Positions 5,923 through 41,416 are shown, numbered from the stretch's first letter. The stretch is 62,127 bases of DNA from an uncultured Halobacteria archaeon (GCA_964443855.1 CAYUEX010000001.1:1-62127); one strand, 5' to 3'. Notes: generated by a model from the letters alone, not told the origin. A program made the numbers and translations.

Positions 5923-6900
5923 ATGAGCATGAAGGAGTTCAACGAGTGCAGGCTATGTGAGTGGGACTGCGGCGCGAATAGACGCGAGGGAGAGACGGGC
6001 GTGTGCAATGTAAAAATGCCCGAGATTGCCTATACCTGCCTGGCGGAATCCCTTGAAAGTTACTCAATCACCTTACTCGGCTGCAATTTCCGCTGCCTTT
6101 ACTGTAACGCGTATCGCTTATCGCAGTATCCTGATACCAACTGGTTTTATCGCGGCTATGTTGATCCACGCGAGTTGGCACACGAGGCAGTAGAGAAGCT
6201 AAACGCAGCAGGTATCGAGAAGCTGGGTTTTACCGGCGGAGAGCCAACCATACATCTCCCGTATATCGAAGAAGTGGTAAAAGAGGCGAGAAAATTGATG
6301 CCCAAACTCAAAGTAACCTTTACCACCAACGGATTTGCAACGGAAGCGACTATGAAACGGATTGTTGCCATGAGTTCTTTCATCACGCTGGAAATCAACG
6401 CATTTCATGATGATACGCATCTGGCGTTAAGTGGTGCTCCGGTTGCGCCGGTCTTACGAAACGTAGAATATCTTATCAAACATAAGGACAAAGTACGGGC
6501 GTTTAAGACCGTTGTGGTGCCGCAGATAAATGATTCAGAGATAAAGGAAATTGCGCAATTTATCGCCTCGTTTGATCCTTCGATACCGTATCACTTAATC
6601 GGATTTCGACCGAGTTTTATGTTGTATTACCATCCGGGACCGTCATCGAGCGAGCTGGAATCGATAGCGAGAAGATGCGAAAACTATTTGGAAACGGTTA
6701 AGTGGGGCGGCTTGTTCCCTCAGGAAAGCGTGTTCGATGACTCGGGAGCGCAACTGGCATTACGTTACGCGACATTAGCGGGATGCGTGAGAAAAGACAG
6801 GAACTGTGGGCTTTGTAGCAAGAATAAACACTGCCCTGCAATTTTACGAGAGCCGTGGCTGTGTAGGCCAAAGGAGCAAAGGGATAACGAGGGAATCTGA
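5923..6900 (+). CDS. Radical SAM protein (PflA-like, with N-terminal Cys-rich CxxCxxC...GxC motif)
   Basis: N-terminal ECRLCEWDCGANRREGETGVC. Radical SAM motif LLGCNFRCLYCNA. FTGGEPT motif. The stop lies 5 nt before the permease gene. Confidence 0.7.
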   Translation: MSMKEFNECRLCEWDCGANRREGETGVCNVKMPEIAYTCLAESLESYSITLLGCNFRCLYCNAYRLSQYPDTNWFYRGYVDPRELAHEAVEKLNAAGIEKLGFTGGEPTIHLPYIEEVVKEARKLMPKLKVTFTTNGFATEATMKRIVAMSSFITLEINAFHDDTHLALSGAPVAPVLRNVEYLIKHKDKVRAFKTVVVPQINDSEIKEIAQFIASFDPSIPYHLIGFRPSFMLYYHPGPSSSELESIARRCENYLETVKWGGLFPQESVFDDSGAQLALRYATLAGCVRKDRNCGLCSKNKHCPAILREPWLCRPKEQRDNEGI

Positions 6901-8938: not shown

Positions 8939-10285
8939 TTATTGGAAGAGGAACTCTTTTGAGAGTTTTCTGTGCGTGAATTCCTTTGCATCCGCGCCGA
9001 CATACGTGGCTACTTTCTGGCCCGCGCCGACCATGAGATATTTATAAATGACGAGCCCTTCTAAGCCGACGGGACCGCGTGCATGCACCTTGTACGTGCT
9101 TATACCCACTTCTGCGCCCTTACCGTACCTGAAACCATCGCTGAACCGCGTTGATGCGTTCTGCATTACCGAAGAGGAATCAACAAACCGCATGAACTTC
9201 AGCGCGGTTTCTTTATTCTCCGTGACGATTGCATCGGTATGCCCCGATCCGTAGGTATTGATATGCTCGATGGCGTCGTCAACGCCGTCAACCACTTTGA
9301 TAGAGATGATTAAGTCGTTGTATTCGGTATGCCAATCCTCTTCTGATGCGGGCTTTAGCTCAGTGTTACTTTCTAAGAGTTTCATTGTTCGTGGGCATCC
9401 GCGAACCTCGACACCTGCTTGGAGATACCGGTCGACCATTTTTGGTAGGAACTCAGGTGCTATTGTAGTATCCACGAGTAATGTTTCCGCAGCGTTACAA
9501 ACCGCAGGATATTGCACCTTCGCATCGTAAGCAACCTCGAGCGCCATATTTGTATTGGCATCCCGATCAACGTACACGTGGCAAATCCCCTCTGAATGCC
9601 CTAAGACCATGATGCTGGAGTTGTCCTGTATGTACCGCACAAACTGGTCGCTCCCCCGCGGTATGATGAGGTCTATGTACGCGTTCATTTTCAACATTGC
9701 ATTGACGTCTTCGCGCGTCTCGAGCAATTGCAGCCAGCCATCAGGGATTCCGTCGCCCTCCGATGACGCTTTTGCCACGATCTGAAAGAGCGCTTCATTT
9801 GAATAGCGTGCTTCAGACCCGCCCTTGAGCAGTACGGCATTGCCGGTTTTCAGACAGAGCGCGGAGATTTGAACGAGCACGTCGGGTCGCGATTCGAAGA
9901 TCGCGCCGATGACACCAATCGGGCAGGCTACCTGGAAGAGCTCTAAATCCTTATCTAACTCGATTGCAGACAGTGTTTTCCCTACGGGGTCCGCTAACTT
10001 CGCAACGTCCTTCACGCTCAGTATCATCTCGTCGATCTTCGAATCGTCCAGGATTAAGCGATGGAGCAGTGCTTTAGACATCTGTCCGTCATTTACTAAG
10101 CCTCGAGCGAGTTCGATATCCTTGTTATTCGCTGCCAGTATCTCTTTTCGATTTTTATCAAGGGCATCTGCGATGCGGAGCAATGCTGCATTCTTCTCCC
10201 CAGTTGTCGCGTTGGCCAAGGGAATTGATGCCGCTCGCGCACTCTTCGCTTTCTCTACGATGCTTGCACCTACATTTAATGTCAT
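8939..10285 (-). CDS. proA: Gamma-glutamyl phosphate reductase
   Basis: Full-length aldehyde-dehydrogenase-fold ProA pattern (…IFESRPD…, …GHSEGICHVYVD…, …CNAAETLLV…, …HTDAIVT…). GGAGG RBS 10 nt upstream of the ATG. Confidence 0.9.
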   Translation of the reverse strand: MTLNVGASIVEKAKSARAASIPLANATTGEKNAALLRIADALDKNRKEILAANNKDIELARGLVNDGQMSKALLHRLILDDSKIDEMILSVKDVAKLADPVGKTLSAIELDKDLELFQVACPIGVIGAIFESRPDVLVQISALCLKTGNAVLLKGGSEARYSNEALFQIVAKASSEGDGIPDGWLQLLETREDVNAMLKMNAYIDLIIPRGSDQFVRYIQDNSSIMVLGHSEGICHVYVDRDANTNMALEVAYDAKVQYPAVCNAAETLLVDTTIAPEFLPKMVDRYLQAGVEVRGCPRTMKLLESNTELKPASEEDWHTEYNDLIISIKVVDGVDDAIEHINTYGSGHTDAIVTENKETALKFMRFVDSSSVMQNASTRFSDGFRYGKGAEVGISTYKVHARGPVGLEGLVIYKYLMVGAGQKVATYVGADAKEFTHRKLSKEFLFQ

Positions 10286-10293
10286 TTTTACAG
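10285..10293. repeat. Direct repeat copy TTTTTACAG at the proA start (pairs with 12451-12459)
   Basis: Exact 9-nt match read from the sequence. Followed by AAC here and by CAAC in the other copy. Confidence 0.5.
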
Positions 10294-10434
10294 AACCTCC
10301 AAAAAGACCATCCGATTTTAGGTGGATGAATGAGATATAAATAGTGATGGTTTAAATAAAGGGACCCTATCCATGCCTTCCAGCAATAAATTGCGTGGTA
10401 TCCATTAAAGGCATAAATAATCAGAATGATATTT

Positions 10435-11262
10435 TCAATCTTCATAATCTCCCATCTCATCTTCAGTGTTTTCGTCGATATCATCGGAATCTCTAAATTC
10501 TGGAAACTGATATAATGTGGTGGTATTCAACCAAGAATTAATGCTCCGTGAAAATTTAGCCCTACTTTGCGGATTAGACGCATCAACAGAAATTTGTATT
10601 GATTTGTTTTTATGATTATATGTTGCATATTCCCTAAAAGTTTTCTCAGTAACTTGTTTAAAAATGTTTTCCACTTTTTTTCTCAGAATGGACCTGGAGG
10701 ATTGTGAAAATGATTCATATAAATCACCGAGTAGTAATTGTATCACTCCTTCTGAAGTCATTTCATCATCATCTGTTGCAATCTTCTTAAAAATCCCTGC
10801 AAGTTTTGGCTTTAGTTCTTCTTCGGTAGATTCTGGAACTGCTAATATACCATAGCTAGGTACGGGAAAAACAAAACCGGTCCAATTGTTAAGTGAATCT
10901 AATAAACGCTCATCATCTATACGTTCAATTGCTGCTTGCCCTGGTTGGTAAACCTGAACCAGATTATAACCTCTGTATCTTGTAGTAGGTATAAGGTCGG
11001 TAACTAAAAAGGGGGCGCTTCCATTTTTACGAGCAGAATCGTTTGGAAATAGAGTTTTCAAATATTCGGTTAATGTGACTTTTTTATATTTTTTCATCTC
11101 ATGGCCTTTCTGGTTAGACATTGAAATATCCACTACACAAAAAAACTCATCAGAAAAACCAATAATATCTGGTGTCAATTCTTCAGCGGTTTTTGGTTCA
11201 CAAAAAAAAATCTTTATAACCTGCCTCAAAGAATGGCCCAACTTCACGTTGACTTTTATCAA
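10435..11262 (-). CDS. Hypothetical protein, no recognisable family; acidic C-terminal tail; may extend to ATG 11308 through a T9 frameshift
   Basis: Long ORF in an A/T-rich segment, co-directional with and downstream of the 345-aa ORF. The track start is TTG. An alternative ATG lies 13 nt after the upstream stop in another frame. Confidence 0.5.
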   Translation of the reverse strand: MIKVNVKLGHSLRQVIKIFFCEPKTAEELTPDIIGFSDEFFCVVDISMSNQKGHEMKKYKKVTLTEYLKTLFPNDSARKNGSAPFLVTDLIPTTRYRGYNLVQVYQPGQAAIERIDDERLLDSLNNWTGFVFPVPSYGILAVPESTEEELKPKLAGIFKKIATDDDEMTSEGVIQLLLGDLYESFSQSSRSILRKKVENIFKQVTEKTFREYATYNHKNKSIQISVDASNPQSRAKFSRSINSWLNTTTLYQFPEFRDSDDIDENTEDEMGDYED

Positions 11263-11321
11263 ATAAAAAAATAGACCTGCGCCATAATTCTACACGCCTC
11301 TCACCCATATTTTCGTATGGA

Positions 11322-12359
11322 CTAGTCAAATAACGGCACCCCCTCATAATACATTTTTACATCAGAAGAAAGGTGACGTGCAGACAAGGTTCCAAATCGA
11401 GGTGCAACATTCATACAAGCATTTGGTTGTGGAGTAATATATGCATAATCTTCACCAAGATCCAAGGTTAAAAAGTCCCCTGTATGAAGGTCAACACCGG
11501 AGTATCTTATAAAATCTTCTTGTGATTCATACGGTTCGAGCCACAGCATCATTCTGCCAACTCCTGAAAATGATATACGACTAAAATCACTATTGTTAAT
11601 TTTTTCTGAAAAAATTGTCTCAACAAATGAAGATCTTTTAGAGCGCTCTTTCTCCATTACCTCTAATTCTTTTAGATACGCAGTTTTTACGTAACTTATC
11701 AATTCTACAAAATTCTCAAAATCATCACACGTATTTACAGTCATATGTCCATTATAGAACAATTCATATAATTCTCCAGATATGTTCCTACCATCTGTTG
11801 ACCAGTTTTTCCCAAATCGGATAGAAGATTTTGAAAAATTATCCTTCGCGGCATTTAACAGTTGCTCTTGCCTCTCTGAAAGATTTCGTCCGATCCAAAG
11901 TTTGGCAGAAAAATTTGATTTTGGTTCTTCCATAGTAAAGGTGTCTTCAAATCGTATCCCAAATCCACGGTTTGTATACCTAAACTCGTTTTGGACTTTA
12001 AACATAAATGATTCTGGTGCCCATAGGTTATCCACCCCTCTTTTTTCAAGAAATACTGATCTTAGCATCTTGAGGGCTGTGTTCGTTTGTGAAAGGCAAA
12101 ATATCTGCCATATTCTCTTATTGCTCGTATCGATCCAATAAGTTTCACCCTCATGGTTAAGTGAATAAAGACTTTTGTCTATACATTTAGCCTCGGATAA
12201 TTCGAGAATATTTCTTACATGGCTTTCATTTACTTCTATCCAAAACACCTTGATTTGAGGGCGCTTCCACTGCCCAAAACGGGAATAGTATTCCCTGTTT
12301 TCTTCACAAATAGCTTGAAGTAAGGTGAATAATTCCTTTCTACTCTTGATGGTGCTCAT
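11322..12359 (-). CDS. Hypothetical protein, no recognisable family (first gene of the inserted cassette)
   Basis: 345-aa ORF with an ATG start and a TATA-like TATTATAAGA about 25 nt upstream. Asn/Lys/Phe/Tyr-rich composition unlike the flanking genes. Confidence 0.55.
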   Translation of the reverse strand: MSTIKSRKELFTLLQAICEENREYYSRFGQWKRPQIKVFWIEVNESHVRNILELSEAKCIDKSLYSLNHEGETYWIDTSNKRIWQIFCLSQTNTALKMLRSVFLEKRGVDNLWAPESFMFKVQNEFRYTNRGFGIRFEDTFTMEEPKSNFSAKLWIGRNLSERQEQLLNAAKDNFSKSSIRFGKNWSTDGRNISGELYELFYNGHMTVNTCDDFENFVELISYVKTAYLKELEVMEKERSKRSSFVETIFSEKINNSDFSRISFSGVGRMMLWLEPYESQEDFIRYSGVDLHTGDFLTLDLGEDYAYITPQPNACMNVAPRFGTLSARHLSSDVKMYYEGVPLFD

Positions 12360-12450
12360 TTATTGTCACTTCATCTACTTCTTATAATACGGAGCCTGTT
12401 AAACCCCTCATAGGTATTCGCAAGACAATAAAGCTTTCGATCTTTAAATT

Positions 12451-12459
12451 TTTTTACAG
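12451..12459. repeat. Direct repeat copy TTTTTACAG containing the proB stop codon (pairs with 10285-10293)
   Basis: Exact 9-nt match read from the sequence. Confidence 0.5.
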
Positions 12460-13605
12460 CAACACCAAATTCCCTCGGTACACCACTTCATTGTACGCTT
12501 TCCGACCCAGAATCCGTTCGATTTCGCGTGATTGCACCCCTTTAATCTTTTCGATATCGCTGCTCGAGTAATTTGAGATGCCCTTTGCAAATTCAATCCC
12601 GTCGGCGTCGACGATGCTAATCGGATCGCCGCTCTTAAACTCCTTTTCCACACCGAGGATGCCCGAGGGGAGCAAGCTCCCACTATTTTCAAGCAGTGCG
12701 GTTTTTGCACCGGCATCAACCTTTATGCTACCTTTTGGCGATGCGGCGAAGCGAATCCAGTGCGTTCGGCCGTTCAGCTTATCCGTCTTCGGCAAGAAGA
12801 GCGTGCCGAGCGGTTCACCATTGATGAGCCGAACGAGGATGTTCTCTGCGCTGCTGTTTGCGATGACCATGGGAATGCCTGCGTTCGTAACGACCTTAGC
12901 AGCTTCCAGTTTCGTCTGCATACCGCCCACACCGGTTCTCCCGCCCTTGTCCGCAATTCGCTCAAGCTCAGGGGTTATTTCGTCCACCACGGCGATGAGT
13001 TCCGCTTTTTCACTTCGTTTCGGGTTATACGTGTACAAACCGTCGACATCAGACAGGATAATAAGCAAATCCGCATCGAGATTGCTTGCGACCAGCGCCG
13101 ATAAATTATCGTTATCGCCCAATTTAATCTCGTCTACGGCCACCGTGTCGTTCTCATTGGTGATAGGGATCACATTGGACTTGAGTAAGGTATCTAGGGT
13201 ATTGCGCAGGTTGAGGTAGCGCTGCCGGTTATGGAATGCCGCATAGGTTACCAAGACCTGAGCTACGATCTGATCATAATGGGAAAAATATTTGTCATAC
13301 GTGCTCATCAGGATGTTCTGGCCGACGGCAGCCGTGGCTTGTAATACCTTTATGTCACGTGGTCGTCGTTTGAGGTCAAGTTTACCAATACCCGCACCGA
13401 TAGCGCCTGACGATACCAAAATGACTTCTTTACCTTGATTTCTCAACGCAACGATCTTTTGAACGAGCTTTTCTACCTTTTCCGGGTTCATTCGGTAATC
13501 TGCATCGGTGATGCTGCTCGTACCGACCTTAATGACGATTCGTTTCGCTTCCGATAGGTCGATACCTTCTCGTTCCGTGGATTTCATCGTTGTTTCTCCA
13601 GCCAT
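12454..13605 (-). CDS. proB: Glutamate 5-kinase with C-terminal PUA domain
   Basis: Amino-acid kinase fold strings (IVIKVGTSS…, VILVSSGAIGAG, GDNDNLSA) and a PUA-like C-terminus. Confidence 0.9.
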   Translation of the reverse strand: MAGETTMKSTEREGIDLSEAKRIVIKVGTSSITDADYRMNPEKVEKLVQKIVALRNQGKEVILVSSGAIGAGIGKLDLKRRPRDIKVLQATAAVGQNILMSTYDKYFSHYDQIVAQVLVTYAAFHNRQRYLNLRNTLDTLLKSNVIPITNENDTVAVDEIKLGDNDNLSALVASNLDADLLIILSDVDGLYTYNPKRSEKAELIAVVDEITPELERIADKGGRTGVGGMQTKLEAAKVVTNAGIPMVIANSSAENILVRLINGEPLGTLFLPKTDKLNGRTHWIRFAASPKGSIKVDAGAKTALLENSGSLLPSGILGVEKEFKSGDPISIVDADGIEFAKGISNYSSSDIEKIKGVQSREIERILGRKAYNEVVYRGNLVLL

Positions 13606-13666: not shown

Positions 13667-14176
13667 TTATAAAAATGGTTTTATCTCCCATGGCGCTTCC
13701 TCAAGCCCTTTGAGCTCCACACCGCCGTCAACGCCCAGAATCTCCGCACCGTCGAATTCTGCCATGCCGCAGAGCAACTGTTGCTCGGGATGCGTGCCCG
13801 GTGTAATCTTACAGCTCAACACGACGCGTTTACCTGCAGAAACGACGATTTTCAGCCGGGCGGACGCGGGATGGTTCTTGGGTAGCACAATCAGTGGCGA
13901 GTTCACTTCTCGAATCATGTAAAGCACGCAACGCAGTCCATTTCTGATCAGGTCATCAGTGCCAAACCCTGAAGCGACCAGTAACGCTTCTGGACCCAAC
14001 CCCAAAACAAACTCGCGGTCAGGCGTGTCAACGAAGAACGGACGTTGGGTTCCTACTTTTACTATCGCTAAGGTGCCGGTCTGTCCGTGCACCAGCAGCA
14101 TTTCGTGGTTTTCTAAGGGGATCATGGTGTGTATAATACTTAACGTAATCCCGGTTATTACATTTTCCCGGAACAA
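13667..14176 (-). CDS. Conserved hypothetical protein
   Basis: ORF with host-like composition; no motif recognised. Confidence 0.45.
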   Translation of the reverse strand: MFRENVITGITLSIIHTMIPLENHEMLLVHGQTGTLAIVKVGTQRPFFVDTPDREFVLGLGPEALLVASGFGTDDLIRNGLRCVLYMIREVNSPLIVLPKNHPASARLKIVVSAGKRVVLSCKITPGTHPEQQLLCGMAEFDGAEILGVDGGVELKGLEEAPWEIKPFL

Positions 14177-14198: not shown

Positions 14199-14687
14199 TC
14201 AAACCACCGGCTCGAGATATTCCCGATATTCCTTGACCTCCACCGGCCTGCCAGACCAGTATTTTAGCACCTCGCCGTTCTGGACGATCGCAGTCAACGG
14301 CAGGAGCTTCTCGCCCTCGCTGCTCCGGTTGATAATATGATAAAGCGCTCCTTCCGGCGAACTGTCGTAAAAATCAATAAAAGCGATTTGATCACCGTAG
14401 AGCTGCTGCAGCTCATCGATATTGGGCATGTCTCGCTCGCAGATTATGCACACGTCCTCACTACACGGATCGCGTCGTATGCTCATCACAACCGGTCGTT
14501 TGAACTCTAAAATCTTTGAAACCGCTCGCTCTATACCTTGGTACTTTCCCTGGACATACCGCATGATTACCTCGTCATACCGCTTCAGAACGTTTTCAAC
14601 GCTCAGCCCGTGCTTCGCGGCGAGCATCTGCACCACTTTCTGCTTGAATATTTGCTGATGTTCTGAGACGAGATCTCTAAGCTGCAT
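14199..14687 (-). CDS. Thioredoxin-fold-like hypothetical protein (CIIC motif)
   Basis: A CxxC (VCIICERD) is followed by a beta-alpha pattern typical of glutaredoxin/thioredoxin-like proteins. Weak call. Confidence 0.4.
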   Translation of the reverse strand: MQLRDLVSEHQQIFKQKVVQMLAAKHGLSVENVLKRYDEVIMRYVQGKYQGIERAVSKILEFKRPVVMSIRRDPCSEDVCIICERDMPNIDELQQLYGDQIAFIDFYDSSPEGALYHIINRSSEGEKLLPLTAIVQNGEVLKYWSGRPVEVKEYREYLEPVV

Positions 14688-17522: not shown

Positions 17523-17816
17523 GTTGAGATAGACCCTCCTGTATTCTGCTGGAAAAGCAATCAAAATCAACTAATCTCAAAATCGTCGGTCGCCCCTCGC
17601 TGAAGATTGGGGCGAGCCGGGATTTGCTACGTTGGTTTAAACAAACGGAAAATCGAGCTCGACCCGTATTACTGTTTTTTCCTTGGTTGAATACCGGGAA
17701 AATGTTAAACGGGGAAATCCGCGAGGATTTAGAGCGAAATTGCCTTAGCCCGTGCATACTCAAAATCAGAGGGAGCCCCTCGGTCTCCCTTTGACTATTG
17801 CAGCAAAAGGTTTATA

Positions 17817-18662
17817 ATGTTCAAGAAGGAATCATCACGTATAAGGGAAGTACCTATCAATGGTAATATGCTTAAAGATATTTATGAGAGATTAGGTATT
17901 GGAACAGATTTAGAAGAAGAACAGAGAAAATTTTTTAACCGCCTTTATTTAACTTTGCAGGTAGTTTCTAACACGTACCCCTATAATAGGACTCATAGAG
18001 GGTTATATAATGCTGTAGCTTATGAATTAGGAGTTGATGTAAGATATAGTTTTGAGTCGTATTTTGATAGCGATTATTCTGATGGTTTTTATTATAATTT
18101 AGCTGTAGCTGAAACTATACTTATAGTTTTCAGACGTTATGCATCTATGAAGACTGCTTGTGAAGTTTTTAAGGAAAGTTTACAAGGTGCTTTTGAGAGA
18201 TCAGCGGTTGATTTAGGAATTACTTTTGAGAACGATATTATAATTAAAACAGGAGTTAGTGAACTGGATAATGTTGCAGTTCTTGAGCCATTAGATTGGT
18301 TAAGCAAGTACCCAACTACGAGAGGATATTTTGAAAGTGCTTTAAAATATTATTTGGCCAAACAGTATCCTGATGCAATGACTAATGCTTATAGTGCTCT
18401 CGAAAGTCTTGCTAAAACCGTTTTAGGGCGTGAAAGAACTTTAGATAATCTAATTGGTGAGCTCTTAAGTTATCTGACTTTACCGACGCAATGGAGTAGT
18501 ATTTTGGGACATTTTTGCCATATTGCACACGAAGATTCGAGTAGGCATGGGGAATCAGAAGGAAACAACGGAAATGACATAGACCCCAAATACGCAGAAG
18601 CATACATCTACTTTACTGGGTTGATGATACGATTAATTATTCGGACAAAAGAGGATGTCTGA
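17817..18662 (+). CDS. Orphan A/T-rich gene; C-terminal helical domain reminiscent of HEPN/Abi_C-type abortive-infection proteins
   Basis: Clean 281-aa ORF in an A/T-rich patch. C-terminal pattern YFESALKYY…AYSALESLAKTVLG…(about 40 aa)…HIAHEDSSRHGE…. The functional call is tentative. Confidence 0.45.
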   Translation: MFKKESSRIREVPINGNMLKDIYERLGIGTDLEEEQRKFFNRLYLTLQVVSNTYPYNRTHRGLYNAVAYELGVDVRYSFESYFDSDYSDGFYYNLAVAETILIVFRRYASMKTACEVFKESLQGAFERSAVDLGITFENDIIIKTGVSELDNVAVLEPLDWLSKYPTTRGYFESALKYYLAKQYPDAMTNAYSALESLAKTVLGRERTLDNLIGELLSYLTLPTQWSSILGHFCHIAHEDSSRHGESEGNNGNDIDPKYAEAYIYFTGLMIRLIIRTKEDV

Positions 18663-18783
18663 AGAAAGAACTTATACTTAATCACTTTTTGTAAAGTTGG
18701 CTTGTGATCAATCAAAATTTTCTAAAAAGGTCTGAGCTAACTGCAAAAAACTTCTTGGGCTCAATATACCCGCGTTAAAAATA

Positions 18784-18818
18784 TAAAAATAAAGAAAAAA
18801 GGAAACCCAATGGTTTCC
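18784..18818 (-). terminator. Hairpin plus T-run terminator after hdrA
   Basis: GGAAACC-CAAT-GGTTTCC (18801-18818), followed on the minus strand by TTTTTTCTTTATTTTTAT. Confidence 0.45.
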
Positions 18819-38476: not shown

Positions 38477-40711
38477 TTATCCCTCCTTATATATCCTTAC
38501 AAATGTCTCATCCATTGGGCATACCCCGCCTATTGGATCTGCACCGGCTTTGATGAAATCGCCGTCGTTGAGGCCTTTTCCGTAGGCTAACGTGAGATCA
38601 GGTGATGTATGCCCGAATCCATGCAGCATGAAAACGGTATCAGGTCTTATTTGTTCGGTTACCTTAGCTTTTATCTTGCCCTTACTGAGTTCGTTTTCAA
38701 CCCAGATGTATTCCACATTCATGATCCCTAAATCCATAGCGGTTTCTCTATTTATCCAGAGTTCATTTTCTGAGCAGATTTCGTTCAGGTACGCATTGTC
38801 AAACGTTGCGGGATTTGCATGGGTATGCACTGCGATATGTCCGTGCAGTAGTCTAAACATGCCATTGGGAGCTTCTGTTGGTGGCAAAAATGTTGGTAAT
38901 GGGTCAAATCCATTTGCCTCAAGTTTCTTCGAATAAAGCTCTATTTTACCGGTAGGCGTGTTTATTTTTACCCCTTCAAGCCCTTTCAGCTCAGGACTTA
39001 TACCAGAAGACCAAATCGAATTCTCTTTGAAATACTCTTTGTTAATTCCAAGTGGCTTGAGTTGAGCATTGATGTAGTCGTCTAACTCGAAGTCGAAATA
39101 ATTACCGATCCCTACTTTCTCAGCTAACTCTTTAAGTATCCAGAACCCCGGCTTTGACTCGTACATCGGCTCTACACAAGGCTGGCGTAAAGCGACCTTC
39201 GGCGATTTCCCTGTAATGACCATCGGTGGCTCATATCTCTCTAAATAGGTACACTCCGGTAGGATAACGTCAGCATACCAGGCTGTATCGCTTGGTAATA
39301 TATCAATAGCTACGAGCAAATCGAGTTTCTTGAACGCTTCGATAACTCTATTTCTATCTGGCATCGCAAGCAACGGGTTAGAACGATACACAATCAAGCC
39401 CTTTACCGGATAGGGGTCTTCATTTATGATTGCATCGGGCAATAACTGCCAGAGCCCGTGGCTTGCGGGAACCAATGGGTATTTGTCTGGGATACCATCC
39501 ACCCGCTTAGCGGTGATCTCAGGATATGCTGGTGGTTTTATGTCACCCAGTGCTACTCCTCTTAAATAAAATAGCCCTCCTGGCTTATTTATGTTTCCAA
39601 CCAGCGCATTCAGAATTAATATTCCTCTACTTGTCTGTGCCTCGTTCGCGTATCCCTTTGGGTGCCAGTTTGGATGTGCTACCGCAGGCTTTGTAGTAGC
39701 GAACTCCACGGCAATCCTCTCAATCTGCGCTGCAGGAACACCAGTAACTCCTTCTGCCCATTCTGGTGTATAATCACCGATAAACCCTTTTAGCTCTTCA
39801 AAGCCATACGTGTATTTAGTCAAGAAGTCCTCGTCATAGAGTCCTTCTCTAATAATAACATTCATCATCGCCAGGACGAACGCCAGGTCCGTTCCAGGTT
39901 TTATTGGTATCCACTCGTCCGCCTTTGAAGCAGTAACCGTAAACCGGGGGTCTAAATATACCAATTTCGCTCCTTTCGTAATAGCAGCGGATAAAGCTTG
40001 AACGGACGAATTTGCCGGAGTTTCAAAGCTGTTTCTGCCAAAGAGCATGATATACTTTGCGTTTGTGTAATCAACGGCATTACCAATATGCGCACCTAAT
40101 GTTGTAGCATCCGCTACGATCCTCGAGATTTTGCAAGTCCCAAGAATAGAGAAGAAATTAGGAGAGCCTAAGGCTTTCTGGAACCTCGATAATAAAGGCG
40201 TCATTAAGCTGCACATTTGTACCATTGCGATGCTCTCTGGGCCGTATTTCGCCTCAATATCTTTAAGCTTCCCCGCCGTGTAATCTAATGCTTCACCCCA
40301 GGTTGCGCGCTTCCAGCCACCCGCACCTCTCTCACCGGTCCGTATAAGTGGGTATTTAACCCTGTTTGGATTATATATCACCTGTTCTGCCGAGTTTCCG
40401 CGTGCGCAGAGTTTCCCTTTTGAGTGTGGCTCCTGTGGATTTCCTTCTATCGATTTTACTACTCCTCCATCACATGTTACTTTTATTCCACATCTGAATG
40501 GGCACATCTCGCATATACTATACACAACACTTTCTGTTTCTAAGGGAGCCGCAATTGCTGGTTCAATCAACGTACCGAACTGCTTCATCGGATAAGCGCC
40601 GACATTGCCGATTCCGCTCAGCGCAGCTGCTGTTCCTAAAGCTGTTAGTTTGGTAAAAGTTCGCCTTGATACTCTTGCGCCACAACAATCAACATTTGTT
40701 CGTACATCCAT
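38477..40711 (-). CDS. Tat-exported molybdopterin oxidoreductase, polysulfide/thiosulfate/tetrathionate reductase (PsrA/PhsA)-like
   Basis: Signal VSRRTFTKLTALGTAAALSG. CEMCPFRCG FS0 motif. …KGKLCARGNS…, …GSPNFFSILGTCKIS… resemble Wolinella PsrA landmarks. Confidence 0.75.
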   Translation of the reverse strand: MDVRTNVDCCGARVSRRTFTKLTALGTAAALSGIGNVGAYPMKQFGTLIEPAIAAPLETESVVYSICEMCPFRCGIKVTCDGGVVKSIEGNPQEPHSKGKLCARGNSAEQVIYNPNRVKYPLIRTGERGAGGWKRATWGEALDYTAGKLKDIEAKYGPESIAMVQMCSLMTPLLSRFQKALGSPNFFSILGTCKISRIVADATTLGAHIGNAVDYTNAKYIMLFGRNSFETPANSSVQALSAAITKGAKLVYLDPRFTVTASKADEWIPIKPGTDLAFVLAMMNVIIREGLYDEDFLTKYTYGFEELKGFIGDYTPEWAEGVTGVPAAQIERIAVEFATTKPAVAHPNWHPKGYANEAQTSRGILILNALVGNINKPGGLFYLRGVALGDIKPPAYPEITAKRVDGIPDKYPLVPASHGLWQLLPDAIINEDPYPVKGLIVYRSNPLLAMPDRNRVIEAFKKLDLLVAIDILPSDTAWYADVILPECTYLERYEPPMVITGKSPKVALRQPCVEPMYESKPGFWILKELAEKVGIGNYFDFELDDYINAQLKPLGINKEYFKENSIWSSGISPELKGLEGVKINTPTGKIELYSKKLEANGFDPLPTFLPPTEAPNGMFRLLHGHIAVHTHANPATFDNAYLNEICSENELWINRETAMDLGIMNVEYIWVENELSKGKIKAKVTEQIRPDTVFMLHGFGHTSPDLTLAYGKGLNDGDFIKAGADPIGGVCPMDETFVRIYKEG

Positions 40712-40771
40712 TTTTTTGCCTCCGTTCTACCTACAAAATTTACATGTACGTATACTAAAAGGTGGGATGAG

Positions 40772-40779
40772 TATATAAA
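40772..40779 (-). promoter_or_regulatory. TATA box (TTTATATA on the coding strand) about 60 nt upstream of the ATG
   Basis: Exact octamer read from the sequence. Confidence 0.3.
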
Positions 40780-40812
40780 CCTAGAGGGTTTTTACTTAAT
40801 AGTGGATATACG

Positions 40813-40882
40813 TGAACAAAATTCTATTTTTTTAAAACGAATAAATACAAAAATGAACAAAATCCAATTTTATTGAACAAAT
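40813..40882. promoter_or_regulatory. Three direct copies of TGAACAAA(A)T upstream of the TATA box, next to the Lrp gene
   Basis: TGAACAAAAT at 40813-40822 and 40854-40863; TGAACAAAT at 40874-40882. Start-to-start spacing is 41 and 20 nt. A partial TGAACA lies at 40967-40972. Confidence 0.35.
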
Positions 40883-40975
40883 GTAGACAAATAAAGGTGT
40901 CTGGTAGATACTTTAGCCTGAAGTAGCTATAAATAAACTAAAACATCAAAAAAAACTATCGAGAAATGAACACGC

Positions 40976-41416
40976 TCACAACTTGACCTTAAGCTCTTCT
41001 TTCAGTATCTTGAGCACGACTTCTGAATTCACACTTTCCACACCTTCGATTTCTTTTATCTTCTCAATAAAAGCCCCACATCTCCCCCGTTCAGGGCACT
41101 TAGTGATAGCCATGAGGTCAAAATCACCGGTTATGTGGTAAATGCTACAACTTCCTTCCAGTTCCGCTATCTCTTTCCCCACCTTTTCGATACCACATCC
41201 CGACTTGGTTTTTATCCTCGTGATCAAGGTGGCCATACCGATCTCAGCTGTATTGAGGATCGTAGTATATTCACAGATAATCCCTTCTTCACCCAGCCTT
41301 TTTACTCTATCGCTCACCGTAGCAGTACTGATTTTTATCTTCTGCGCAATCTTCGTGAAAGATTGACGTGCATCCAACTGGAGTTCTCCCAATATTTTCT
41401 TATCTAATTCATCCAT
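40976..41416 (-). CDS. Lrp/AsnC-family transcriptional regulator
   Basis: N-terminal HTH (LDELDKKILGELQLDARQSFTKIAQKIKISTATVSDRVKRL) plus a RAM/ACT-like C-domain. Confidence 0.85.
   Translation of the reverse strand: MDELDKKILGELQLDARQSFTKIAQKIKISTATVSDRVKRLGEEGIICEYTTILNTAEIGMATLITRIKTKSGCGIEKVGKEIAELEGSCSIYHITGDFDLMAITKCPERGRCGAFIEKIKEIEGVESVNSEVVLKILKEELKVKL

Follow-up and report, generated by a model that had tools for sequence, protein, structure and literature searches.

Among the closest described counterparts of the locus analysed here are the type II toxin–antitoxin (TA) pairs RnlA–RnlB and LsoA–LsoB, which act against T4. RnlA of E. coli is a protein of 357 amino acids (aa) with TBP-like N-terminal domains and a HEPN ribonuclease domain that binds Dmd; its gene overlaps by 8 nt that of its partner RnlB, an antitoxin of 123 aa. 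The genomic setting of our locus also has a described counterpart, since ANME-1 genomes are reported to vary from one another at hotspots where restriction–modification (R-M) and TA genes, hicAB among them, are over-represented (Zhou et al., Nat Commun 2026, PMC13385816). We have analysed a 62,127-nucleotide stretch of DNA deposited as that of an uncultured Halobacteria archaeon (GCA_964443855.1, CAYUEX010000001.1:1-62127; hereafter the window), in which a two-gene cassette lies between proB and proA. Gene 1 encodes a protein of 345 aa (ORF345) and gene 2 a partner of about 300 aa. We read the cassette as a foreign, nuclease-based defence or addiction module that occupies an ANME-1 hotspot and is decaying in this genome, and we put the probability of this reading at roughly 0.5.

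The proB and proA genes are co-directional and, in the minus-strand table of open reading frames (ORFs), 2,168 nt apart. An initial annotation, made from the sequence of the window, had placed the two on the same strand about 2.2 kb from one another, and this is borne out, with their domains identified by Pfam. ProB is 70–81% identical to ProB of Methanophagales (ANME-1), and ProA is 74–83% identical to ANME-1-type ProA. Because these are the nearest relatives of both proteins, we assign the window DNA to an ANME-1 (Methanophagales) archaeon. The A/T-richness ascribed to the insert is equally evident in windowed G+C content (GC): the gap, at 0.33–0.39 against 0.48–0.55 in its flanks, is the deepest trough of the window, the cassette has a GC of 0.357 against 0.477 for the remainder, and GC at third codon positions is 0.32 in ORF345 against 0.58 in proA and proB. 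Comparison loci are referred to by number (L001, L002 and so on). The features of the locus, all on the minus strand, are as follows.

8939–10285, minus: proA, glutamate-5-semialdehyde dehydrogenase, native host gene (Pfam Aldedh, E = 2.2e-21)
10285–10293, minus: right copy of CTGTAAAAA, in the spacer between GGAGG and the proA ATG, native leader
10286–10358, minus: native proA promoter and leader, with TATTTAAAC at 10350–10358 and GGAGG at 10296–10300
10371–10420, minus: hairpin closing the cassette at its sharp 3' limit (minimum free energy −19.6 kcal/mol, z = −3.0)
10371–12387, minus: cassette-derived DNA, 2,017 nt, GC about 0.36, the unit common to cassette copies at other loci
10435–11347, minus: gene 2 (partner), 303 aa after removal of one T, frameshifted here
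11202–11210, minus: T9 homopolymer bearing the +1 frameshift of gene 2
11322–12359, minus: gene 1 (ORF345), 345 aa, intact, MJECL33 family (Pfam PF25924, phrog_22469)
12380–12389, minus: TATA-like TATTATAAGA, its centre about 26 nt before the ATG of ORF345, recognised from sequence
12388–12453, minus: 66-nt segment from the proB stop to the onset of cassette homology, without counterpart in L003, L004, L184 or L006
12451–12459, minus: left copy of CTGTAAAAA, formed by the last Leu codon of proB, its TAA stop and AAA, native (L009 reads CTGCTGTAAAAC at the orthologous position)
12454–13605, minus: proB, glutamate 5-kinase, native host gene (Pfam AA_kinase and PUA, E = 6.5e-45 and 1.3e-17)

All 30 of 30 ORF345 homologues, one of them 93% identical, carry a precomputed match to the Pfam family PF25924 (MJECL33). 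A Pfam scan of ORF345 itself gave no matches because the model set scanned did not contain PF25924. Aligned by hhalign, the family profile matches an ORF at 40122–41339 of the M. jannaschii plasmid pDSM2661_1 (L176) with a probability of 97.8% and E = 8.6e-13 over 323 columns; judging by gene order and numbering, we take this ORF to be MJECL33. ORF345 also belongs with the virus protein family phrog_22469 (E = 1.8e-7), which is matched by 23 of 25 family members. We found no mention of PF25924 or MJECL33 in the literature that could be searched. The suggestion in the initial annotation that neither product has a known family thus stands for gene 2, which is without a Pfam family, and falls for gene 1.

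MJECL33 is a sequence homologue of ORF345 that, at 405 aa, is longer by insertions, and it likewise has an overlapping downstream ORF. The latter differs from our partner gene in encoding 438 aa, with a marginal likeness to the C-terminal half of the partner (probability 23.5%) in an alignment that sets ILPEN against the partner's invariant VPES. A 292-aa ORF upstream of MJECL33 was considered as a partner homologue and rejected (probability 0.1%). MJECL33 and the 438-aa ORF lie between VapBC and genes for an OLD-family ATP-dependent endonuclease, EVE, PIN and HsdR, in what is a defence-island-like stretch of the plasmid (L176 37148–52524).

The AlphaFold2 (AF2) model of ORF345 (pLDDT 87.5, pTM 0.88) consists of repeated β-α-β4-α units, from which we predict that the protein is built of repeated TBP-like α/β domains. 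A Foldseek search of the PDB with this model placed E. coli RnlA first, with probabilities of 0.97–1.0 (6y2s, 6y2r and 4i8o) at a TM score of about 0.2; the superposition on 7aex covers 91 columns with a root-mean-square deviation of 4.6. TBP, AdoMetDC-type and Iml3/CENP-N folds followed. Among viral models, the matches were to phage 'exonuclease' and RdgC-type proteins (TM 0.26–0.36), together with RNase-LS-like and RnlA/LsoA-N-domain proteins. By sequence, profile searches of the PDB returned nothing significant for gene 1 or for the partner family.

The likeness to RnlA–RnlB and LsoA–LsoB therefore lies in the fold, ORF345 having RnlA as its best PDB match through the TBP-like N-terminal domains, in protein size (345 aa against 357 aa) and in the overlapping downstream partner gene. 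The two systems differ in that ORF345 lacks the HEPN ribonuclease domain, its C-terminal third being β-α-β4-α-β rather than a helical bundle, and in that its partner is a nuclease-like protein of about 300 aa, whereas RnlB is the small antitoxin. No RnlA, LsoA or HEPN Pfam matches were found in ORF345, and membership of the RnlA family was rejected at the sequence level, the hhalign probability against E. coli RnlA being 0.3%.

Two co-directional ORFs had been described in the gap, of 345 and 275 aa. The first is as reported; the second is the downstream part of a frameshifted 303-aa gene. Its homologues, of 290–303 aa, read ...MGERRVELWRRSIFLFDKSQREVGPFFEAGYKDFFCEPKTAEK... without interruption, whereas in the window the ...AGYKDFFCEPK... 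region is split over two frames at the T9 run. This run is T8 in five other copies, all intact, T7 in the pseudogenised L006 and T9 in the window, and deletion of a single T restores a 303-aa gene (11347–10435) whose first 26 nt coincide with the end of ORF345, an overlap also seen in intact copies.

The AF2 model of an intact partner homologue, P0031 (pLDDT 85.4), combines an α/β domain at the N-terminus with a C-terminal half made of helices and ends in an acidic tail predicted to be disordered. Foldseek returned for it a series of PD-(D/E)xK proteins, with the R2 RLE domain best (probability 0.96, E = 6e-3), followed by R.BspD6I, AF1548, the cap-snatching endonucleases of bunyaviruses, McrC and Hjc, at TM scores of about 0.2; the C-terminal half matched winged-helix-type folds. 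A broader partner profile gave sub-threshold sequence matches in the PDB to the R2 retrotransposon protein, the family at the top of the Foldseek results. Across 54 diverse partners the only invariant residues are D60, E172 (within the VPES motif) and W272, with P59 nearly so. In a pattern that may correspond to the signature of PD-(D/E)xK nucleases, whose fold the N-terminal half may share, the invariant Asp60 follows a near-invariant Pro; the strand after it bears an acidic residue, and helix 1 a Glu (E16). The partner consensus, PDI...ELT.....K, departs from the canonical motif: acidic residue 73 is followed by S/T rather than K, a Lys occurs 5–7 residues further downstream, giving PD...(D/E)x(S/T)...K, and VPES is an additional invariant element. 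Neither Pfam, PDDEXK-type families included, nor the PADLOC models gave a family-level match for the partners. The model thus suggests that gene 2 encodes a PD-(D/E)xK-like nuclease whose N-terminal domain is followed by a winged-helix half and an acidic tail.

The partner gene is damaged in 3 of the 11 lineages (the window, L006 and L181–183), a count that is biased because most loci were found through intact gene-1 proteins. The 81%-identical cassette of L006 (2084–2974) has an intact gene 1 and a partner pseudogene with a nonsense codon and two frameshifts in shortened T-runs, one (T8 to T7) at the homopolymer that is also affected in the window and one (T7 to T6) in a second run, all within the first 75 or so codons. 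At L181 (9032–10100), and also L182 and L183, an intact MJECL33-family gene is accompanied by a partner truncated after about 48 residues. All of these lesions fall before or around the PD motif. Absence of a partner from gene tables can be an annotation gap, because at L177 (9058–9930) the partner is intact and missing from the called genes of the public collection. Decay restricted to gene 2 is what would be expected of a costly or toxic effector.

The cassette of the window might, on the other hand, be fully functional, T9 having arisen from a mistake in sequencing or assembling the homopolymer, or acting as a phase-variable switch that can revert: the lesion is single, it affects a run for which five other copies have T8, the remainder of gene 2 is open and gene 1 is intact. 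Selection speaks against this. Comparison of intact copies reveals purifying selection on both genes (dN/dS 0.07–0.17), with gene 1 at 0.08–0.20 overall. Between the window and L003, the closest relative, dN/dS is 0.49 for gene 2 against 0.20 for gene 1 and against 0.07–0.15 between intact copies. Moreover, two other lineages show unambiguous partner decay, L006 at the same T-run. We regard a functional copy as a real though lesser possibility, and lean towards genuine decay rather than assembly error as the cause of the T9 frameshift.

The position of the insertion can be defined from cassette copies elsewhere. By blastn, the window is 93.6% identical to L003/L004 over 12386–10397 and 91.4% identical to L184/L185 over 12387–10371, with unrelated flanks in both cases. 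No direct or inverted terminal repeats are present at these ends (12387 and 10371), the unit holds its two genes and no transposase, integrase or recombinase gene, and no tRNA gene that might serve as an integration target was found in the window. The 5' boundary of the cassette is ragged. The 3' end is sharp in the close copies and follows a hairpin, those of L184 (about 6325–6369) and L003 (about 2215–2257) ending exactly at the limit of homology; differences among the three close copies are partly compensatory, and no counterpart could be aligned in distant copies. The hairpin is probably a terminator or stability element. The idea of an attC-like or IS200/IS605-like end was considered and rejected as evidence of a mechanism, since the hairpin is unconserved in distant copies and there is neither an integrase or TnpA nor a conserved core site.

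These boundaries do not coincide with the 9-mer CTGTAAAAA, which the initial annotation had taken as a target-site duplication (TSD). The 9-mer is indeed found at both junctions and nowhere else in the window, with exactly two occurrences (10285–10293 and 12451–12459); allowing mismatches, the likeness continues over 16 of 19 nt, and a 9-mer common to two 43-nt zones arose in about 0.6–1.6% of random or shuffled trials. On this evidence a mobile cassette could have transposed into a tight junction, ...CTG TAA AA ATG..., duplicating 9 nt of target and inserting the whole of 10286–12453, the proA promoter included. However, the left and right 9-mers lie 66 nt and 77–103 nt, respectively, outside the cassette homology, which in four other copies stops at 12386/7 and 10371–10397, inside both. 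The left copy is proB stop context. At the right position, L097 and L010 read GGAGGTTTTATAAAAAATGAC and L012 reads TCTGATAAAATG (the orthologous positions of L097 and L010 are also given as TTTTATAAAAAATG), and the right copy is therefore the native spacer between the proA ribosome-binding site and its ATG. The empty sites of relatives, which should have read ...CTGTAAAAATG..., instead carry a 111–139-nt spacer orthologous to window 10286–10358, those of L097 and L012 with a TATA box and a GGAGG leader. With neither a transposase nor terminal inverted repeats in addition, we consider such a transposition highly improbable. The alignments instead place the insertion after the stop codon of proB and ahead of the TATA box of proA, without a TSD and upstream of proA's own promoter, and not, as had been proposed, precisely into a proB–proA operon at a duplicated junction.

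Of the two TATA-like elements that had been assigned to the cassette, CTATTTATATC before proA is native, lying in the promoter and leader that are conserved in cassette-free loci. The other, TATTATAAGA before ORF345, may be a cassette promoter, which would imply a near-leaderless mRNA; L003, L006 and L184 have a TATA-rich stretch at the matching position. The 66-nt segment 12388–12453 could be the proB 3' region or a remnant of donor context, and an Rfam scan of the cassette region, this segment included, gave no matches.

The distance between proB and proA is highly variable among ANME-1 relatives. L012 (139 nt) and L097 (about 111 nt) are effectively empty; their spacers contain the TATA-like TATTTAAAC, a second TATA-like stretch and the GGAGG leader. 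The spacers of L097, L010 and L012 align collinearly to window 10286–10358. An exact-protein search with the ProB of the window found no record that might supply an empty site from the same strain, and L097, about 80% identical, is the best empty-site reference. Other relatives, and the window, have different occupants:

L016 6280–6498: HicB
L017 7280–7698 and 7802–8629: HicB, HicA and an alpha/beta-hydrolase
L009 1951–4119, and L096: hydrolase and a 376-aa secreted protein
L020 907–2512: decayed gene remnants and a membrane protein
L010 5118–5978: 861 nt of unrelated AT-rich DNA
Window: the cassette of ORF345 and its partner

The L010 gap was considered as a decayed copy of the window cassette and rejected, the two having just the proA leader in common. 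Comparison of the locus across ANME genomes, as the initial annotation had proposed, thus revealed empty and otherwise filled sites, none of the predicted form. With at least six occupancy states, HicAB among them, the spacer is, on these alignments, a hotspot of gene gain and loss in ANME-1. It resembles the hotspots described for these archaea (PMC13385816) in being a variable locus of the insertion/deletion type and in holding HicB or HicAB in L016 and L017, and differs in that the occupant in the window is not a recognised TA or R-M system; that paper makes no mention of proB/proA or of the MJECL33–partner gene pair. We have little doubt that proB and proA form no tight operon, that the spacer between them is a hotspot containing the proA TATA box and leader, and that an AT-rich module of about 2.0 kb was acquired horizontally within it with no TSD, terminal repeats or recombinase gene. 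As a separate observation, L009 (DATKXZ010000013.1) is binned as 'Desulfobacteria bacterium' and L010 (DYFG01000026.1) as 'Nitrosotalea sp.'; their proB and proA are of ANME-1 type, 74–82% identical to those of the window, and both contigs are, from this identity, probably misbinned ANME-1 DNA.

The two genes travel together. In every lineage examined, down to 35–37% identity, gene 1 is followed by a gene of about 284–309 aa or its remnant, and in most intact copies the two overlap by 8–46 nt. Adjacent or overlapping co-directional genes are the arrangement of type II TA systems, and the pair appears to be translationally coupled. The module occurs in ANME-1, in Methanoperedens and on Thermoplasmata-labelled contigs, at unrelated sites, with a cassette GC of 0.33–0.41 in hosts of 0.38–0.55; copies 91–94% identical in DNA occupy unrelated loci (L003/4/5 and L184/5). 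Both families are small: gene 1 makes up 46 clusters at 90% identity among 5.8 billion, and the partner 96 clusters at 50% identity among 1.84 billion, nearly all of 280–300 aa and never fused to another domain. The sites of the cassette outside the window include:

Methanophagales contig: after cell-surface protein genes
L001: next to PheRS
L002: between two TGT-family genes
L177: beside a type I R-M locus with an insertion sequence
L181–183: in a dense TA island of PIN, HepT/MNT, MazE–PIN and ParE genes
L092–95 and L178–180: among metabolic genes

At the level of sequence, these comparisons show that two coupled genes, acquired horizontally as one unit, entered a variable spacer. Of the compositionally foreign, mobile, defence-type cassette originally envisaged, the first two attributes are upheld by AT-richness in all hosts and by close copies at unrelated loci; that it serves defence is something we infer. 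The search for defence islands among the neighbourhoods had a divided outcome, with the TA island of L181–183 and the type I R-M locus of L177 on one side and many copies among housekeeping genes on the other.

Free-standing homing endonuclease genes such as seg and mob lie between conserved phage genes, and the pair could similarly be a selfish element that cuts cassette-free alleles and is copied in by repair, its nuclease decaying after fixation. The intergenic position between conserved genes, the lack of a recombinase and of a TSD, the sharp 3' end and the repeated decay of the nuclease-like gene would all agree with this, as would the fold of the partner N-terminal domain, which is like that of the site-specific R2 RLE endonuclease and restriction-like enzymes. 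The cassette has, however, no site specificity, because its 91–94% identical copies are at unrelated sites with no common flanking motif; no insertion site recurs in different genomes, the flanks of the window, L003/4, L184/5, L006, L001 and L002 all being different. Its 5' boundary is ragged, and it consists of two genes, the nuclease-like one having a large and strongly conserved non-nuclease partner whose dN/dS between the window and L006 is 0.11 despite the broken nuclease, a constraint for which homing would not account. A homing element is, on balance, quite unlikely.

A second alternative is an ordinary accessory module of DNA metabolism, an RdgC-like DNA-binding protein with a structure-specific nuclease acting in recombination, repair or the replication of plasmids or viruses, that entered a permissive spacer by passive horizontal transfer. 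Among viral structures, ORF345 reaches its highest TM scores (0.26–0.36) with recombination proteins and 'exonucleases' of the RdgC type from phages. The matches of the partner include Hjc and further PD-(D/E)xK folds of the repair type, many copies have housekeeping neighbours, and the plasmid of the founding family member also encodes NurA, MCM and helicases. Yet there was no RdgC among the PDB matches of ORF345, with 46 clusters in 5.8 billion the family is of very rare and scattered occurrence, it is AT-rich in all hosts, and a different locus in each lineage together with repeated loss of the nuclease fits conflict or selfish genes better than repair. We regard this alternative as rather unlikely, if less so than homing.

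That the pair is a nuclease-based conflict module, whether an anti-mobile-element defence or an addiction (TA-like) element, we consider plausible at somewhat less than even odds. Hints of conflict come from the distant virus relatives in phrog_22469, from the TA and R-M neighbours at L181–183 and L177, and from VapBC, OLD, EVE, PIN and HsdR on the M. jannaschii plasmid. In such a module the gene-2 protein would be a DNA-cutting effector, and the MJECL33 protein a nucleic-acid-binding sensor or a regulator of the gene-2 protein; the effector gene of the window would be broken by the 1-nt homopolymer frameshift upstream of the PD motif. A more specific proposal, which we offer as a doubtful one, is that the MJECL33 protein and its partner of about 300 aa form an undescribed, mainly archaeal immunity or addiction system, in which a triple TBP-like sensor, of a fold found also in the RnlA N-terminal domains and in phage RdgC-type proteins, detects foreign nucleic acid or a protein of the invader and licenses a PD-(D/E)xK/winged-helix nuclease auto-inhibited by its acidic tail, and in which the T8 tract acts as a mutational off-switch when the system becomes costly.

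Several observations weigh against a defence or addiction role. The nuclease assignment depends on weak Foldseek E-values (6e-3 at best) and on a motif without the canonical (D/E)xK lysine. The resemblance to RnlA is at the domain level only (TM about 0.2, hhalign 0.3%) and does not include a HEPN domain. Many copies of the cassette are amid ordinary housekeeping genes rather than in defence islands, the tally of broken partners carries the bias noted above, and the T9 frameshift may stem from misassembly of the homopolymer. Searches of mobile elements were empty, tblastn of ORF345 finding no match in PLSDB plasmids and INPHARED phages, and the MJECL33 and partner profiles finding no relatives in IMG/VR. 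Nor did collections of known systems and families identify either protein: the sole match of the window proteins in PADLOC-DB v2 was PDC-S05 at 0.026, the 54 diverse partners gave single-member PADLOC matches only (E >= 3e-4), and NCBIfam had no match. The PADLOC check, suggested at the outset for a known defence system, thus yielded nothing significant for either protein. We conclude that this is a genuine cassette of foreign origin and, taken as a system, an undescribed one, with its first gene in an existing, uncharacterised Pfam family.

Elsewhere in the window, two ORFs directly upstream of proB (169 aa, 13667–14176, minus; 162 aa, 14199–14687, minus) are of host-like GC and have no Pfam family. 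The second-deepest GC trough, an AT-rich island at about 17600–18800 with a GC of 0.37, contains a 281-aa ORF (17817–18662, plus) between genes of 659 and 904 aa. In PADLOC this ORF matches PDC-S32, a candidate defence family (E = 1.9e-8), and it has no Pfam family. It appears to be a further AT-rich insertion in this genome, defence-like and consisting of one gene.

The junction repeat, striking at 9 nt and extending to 16 of 19, proved native on both sides, and counsels caution in deducing a TSD without comparison to an empty site. Outside CRISPR, R-M and classic TA systems, archaeal immunity is poorly charted, the virome of ANME-1 is large and mostly unexplored, and we know of no genetic system for ANME-1. 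If the module does prove to be a working nuclease-based defence or addiction system, it would be of a new type, and would offer a first way into the function of PF25924 and of the TBP-like domains at the N-terminus of RnlA-type toxins. The gene pair is a candidate for a new nuclease module, its locus exemplifies cleanly what an ANME-1 hotspot looks like, and, whatever the cassette does, the proB–proA spacer is a convenient marker locus for the entry and decay of accessory genes in uncultured methanotrophs.

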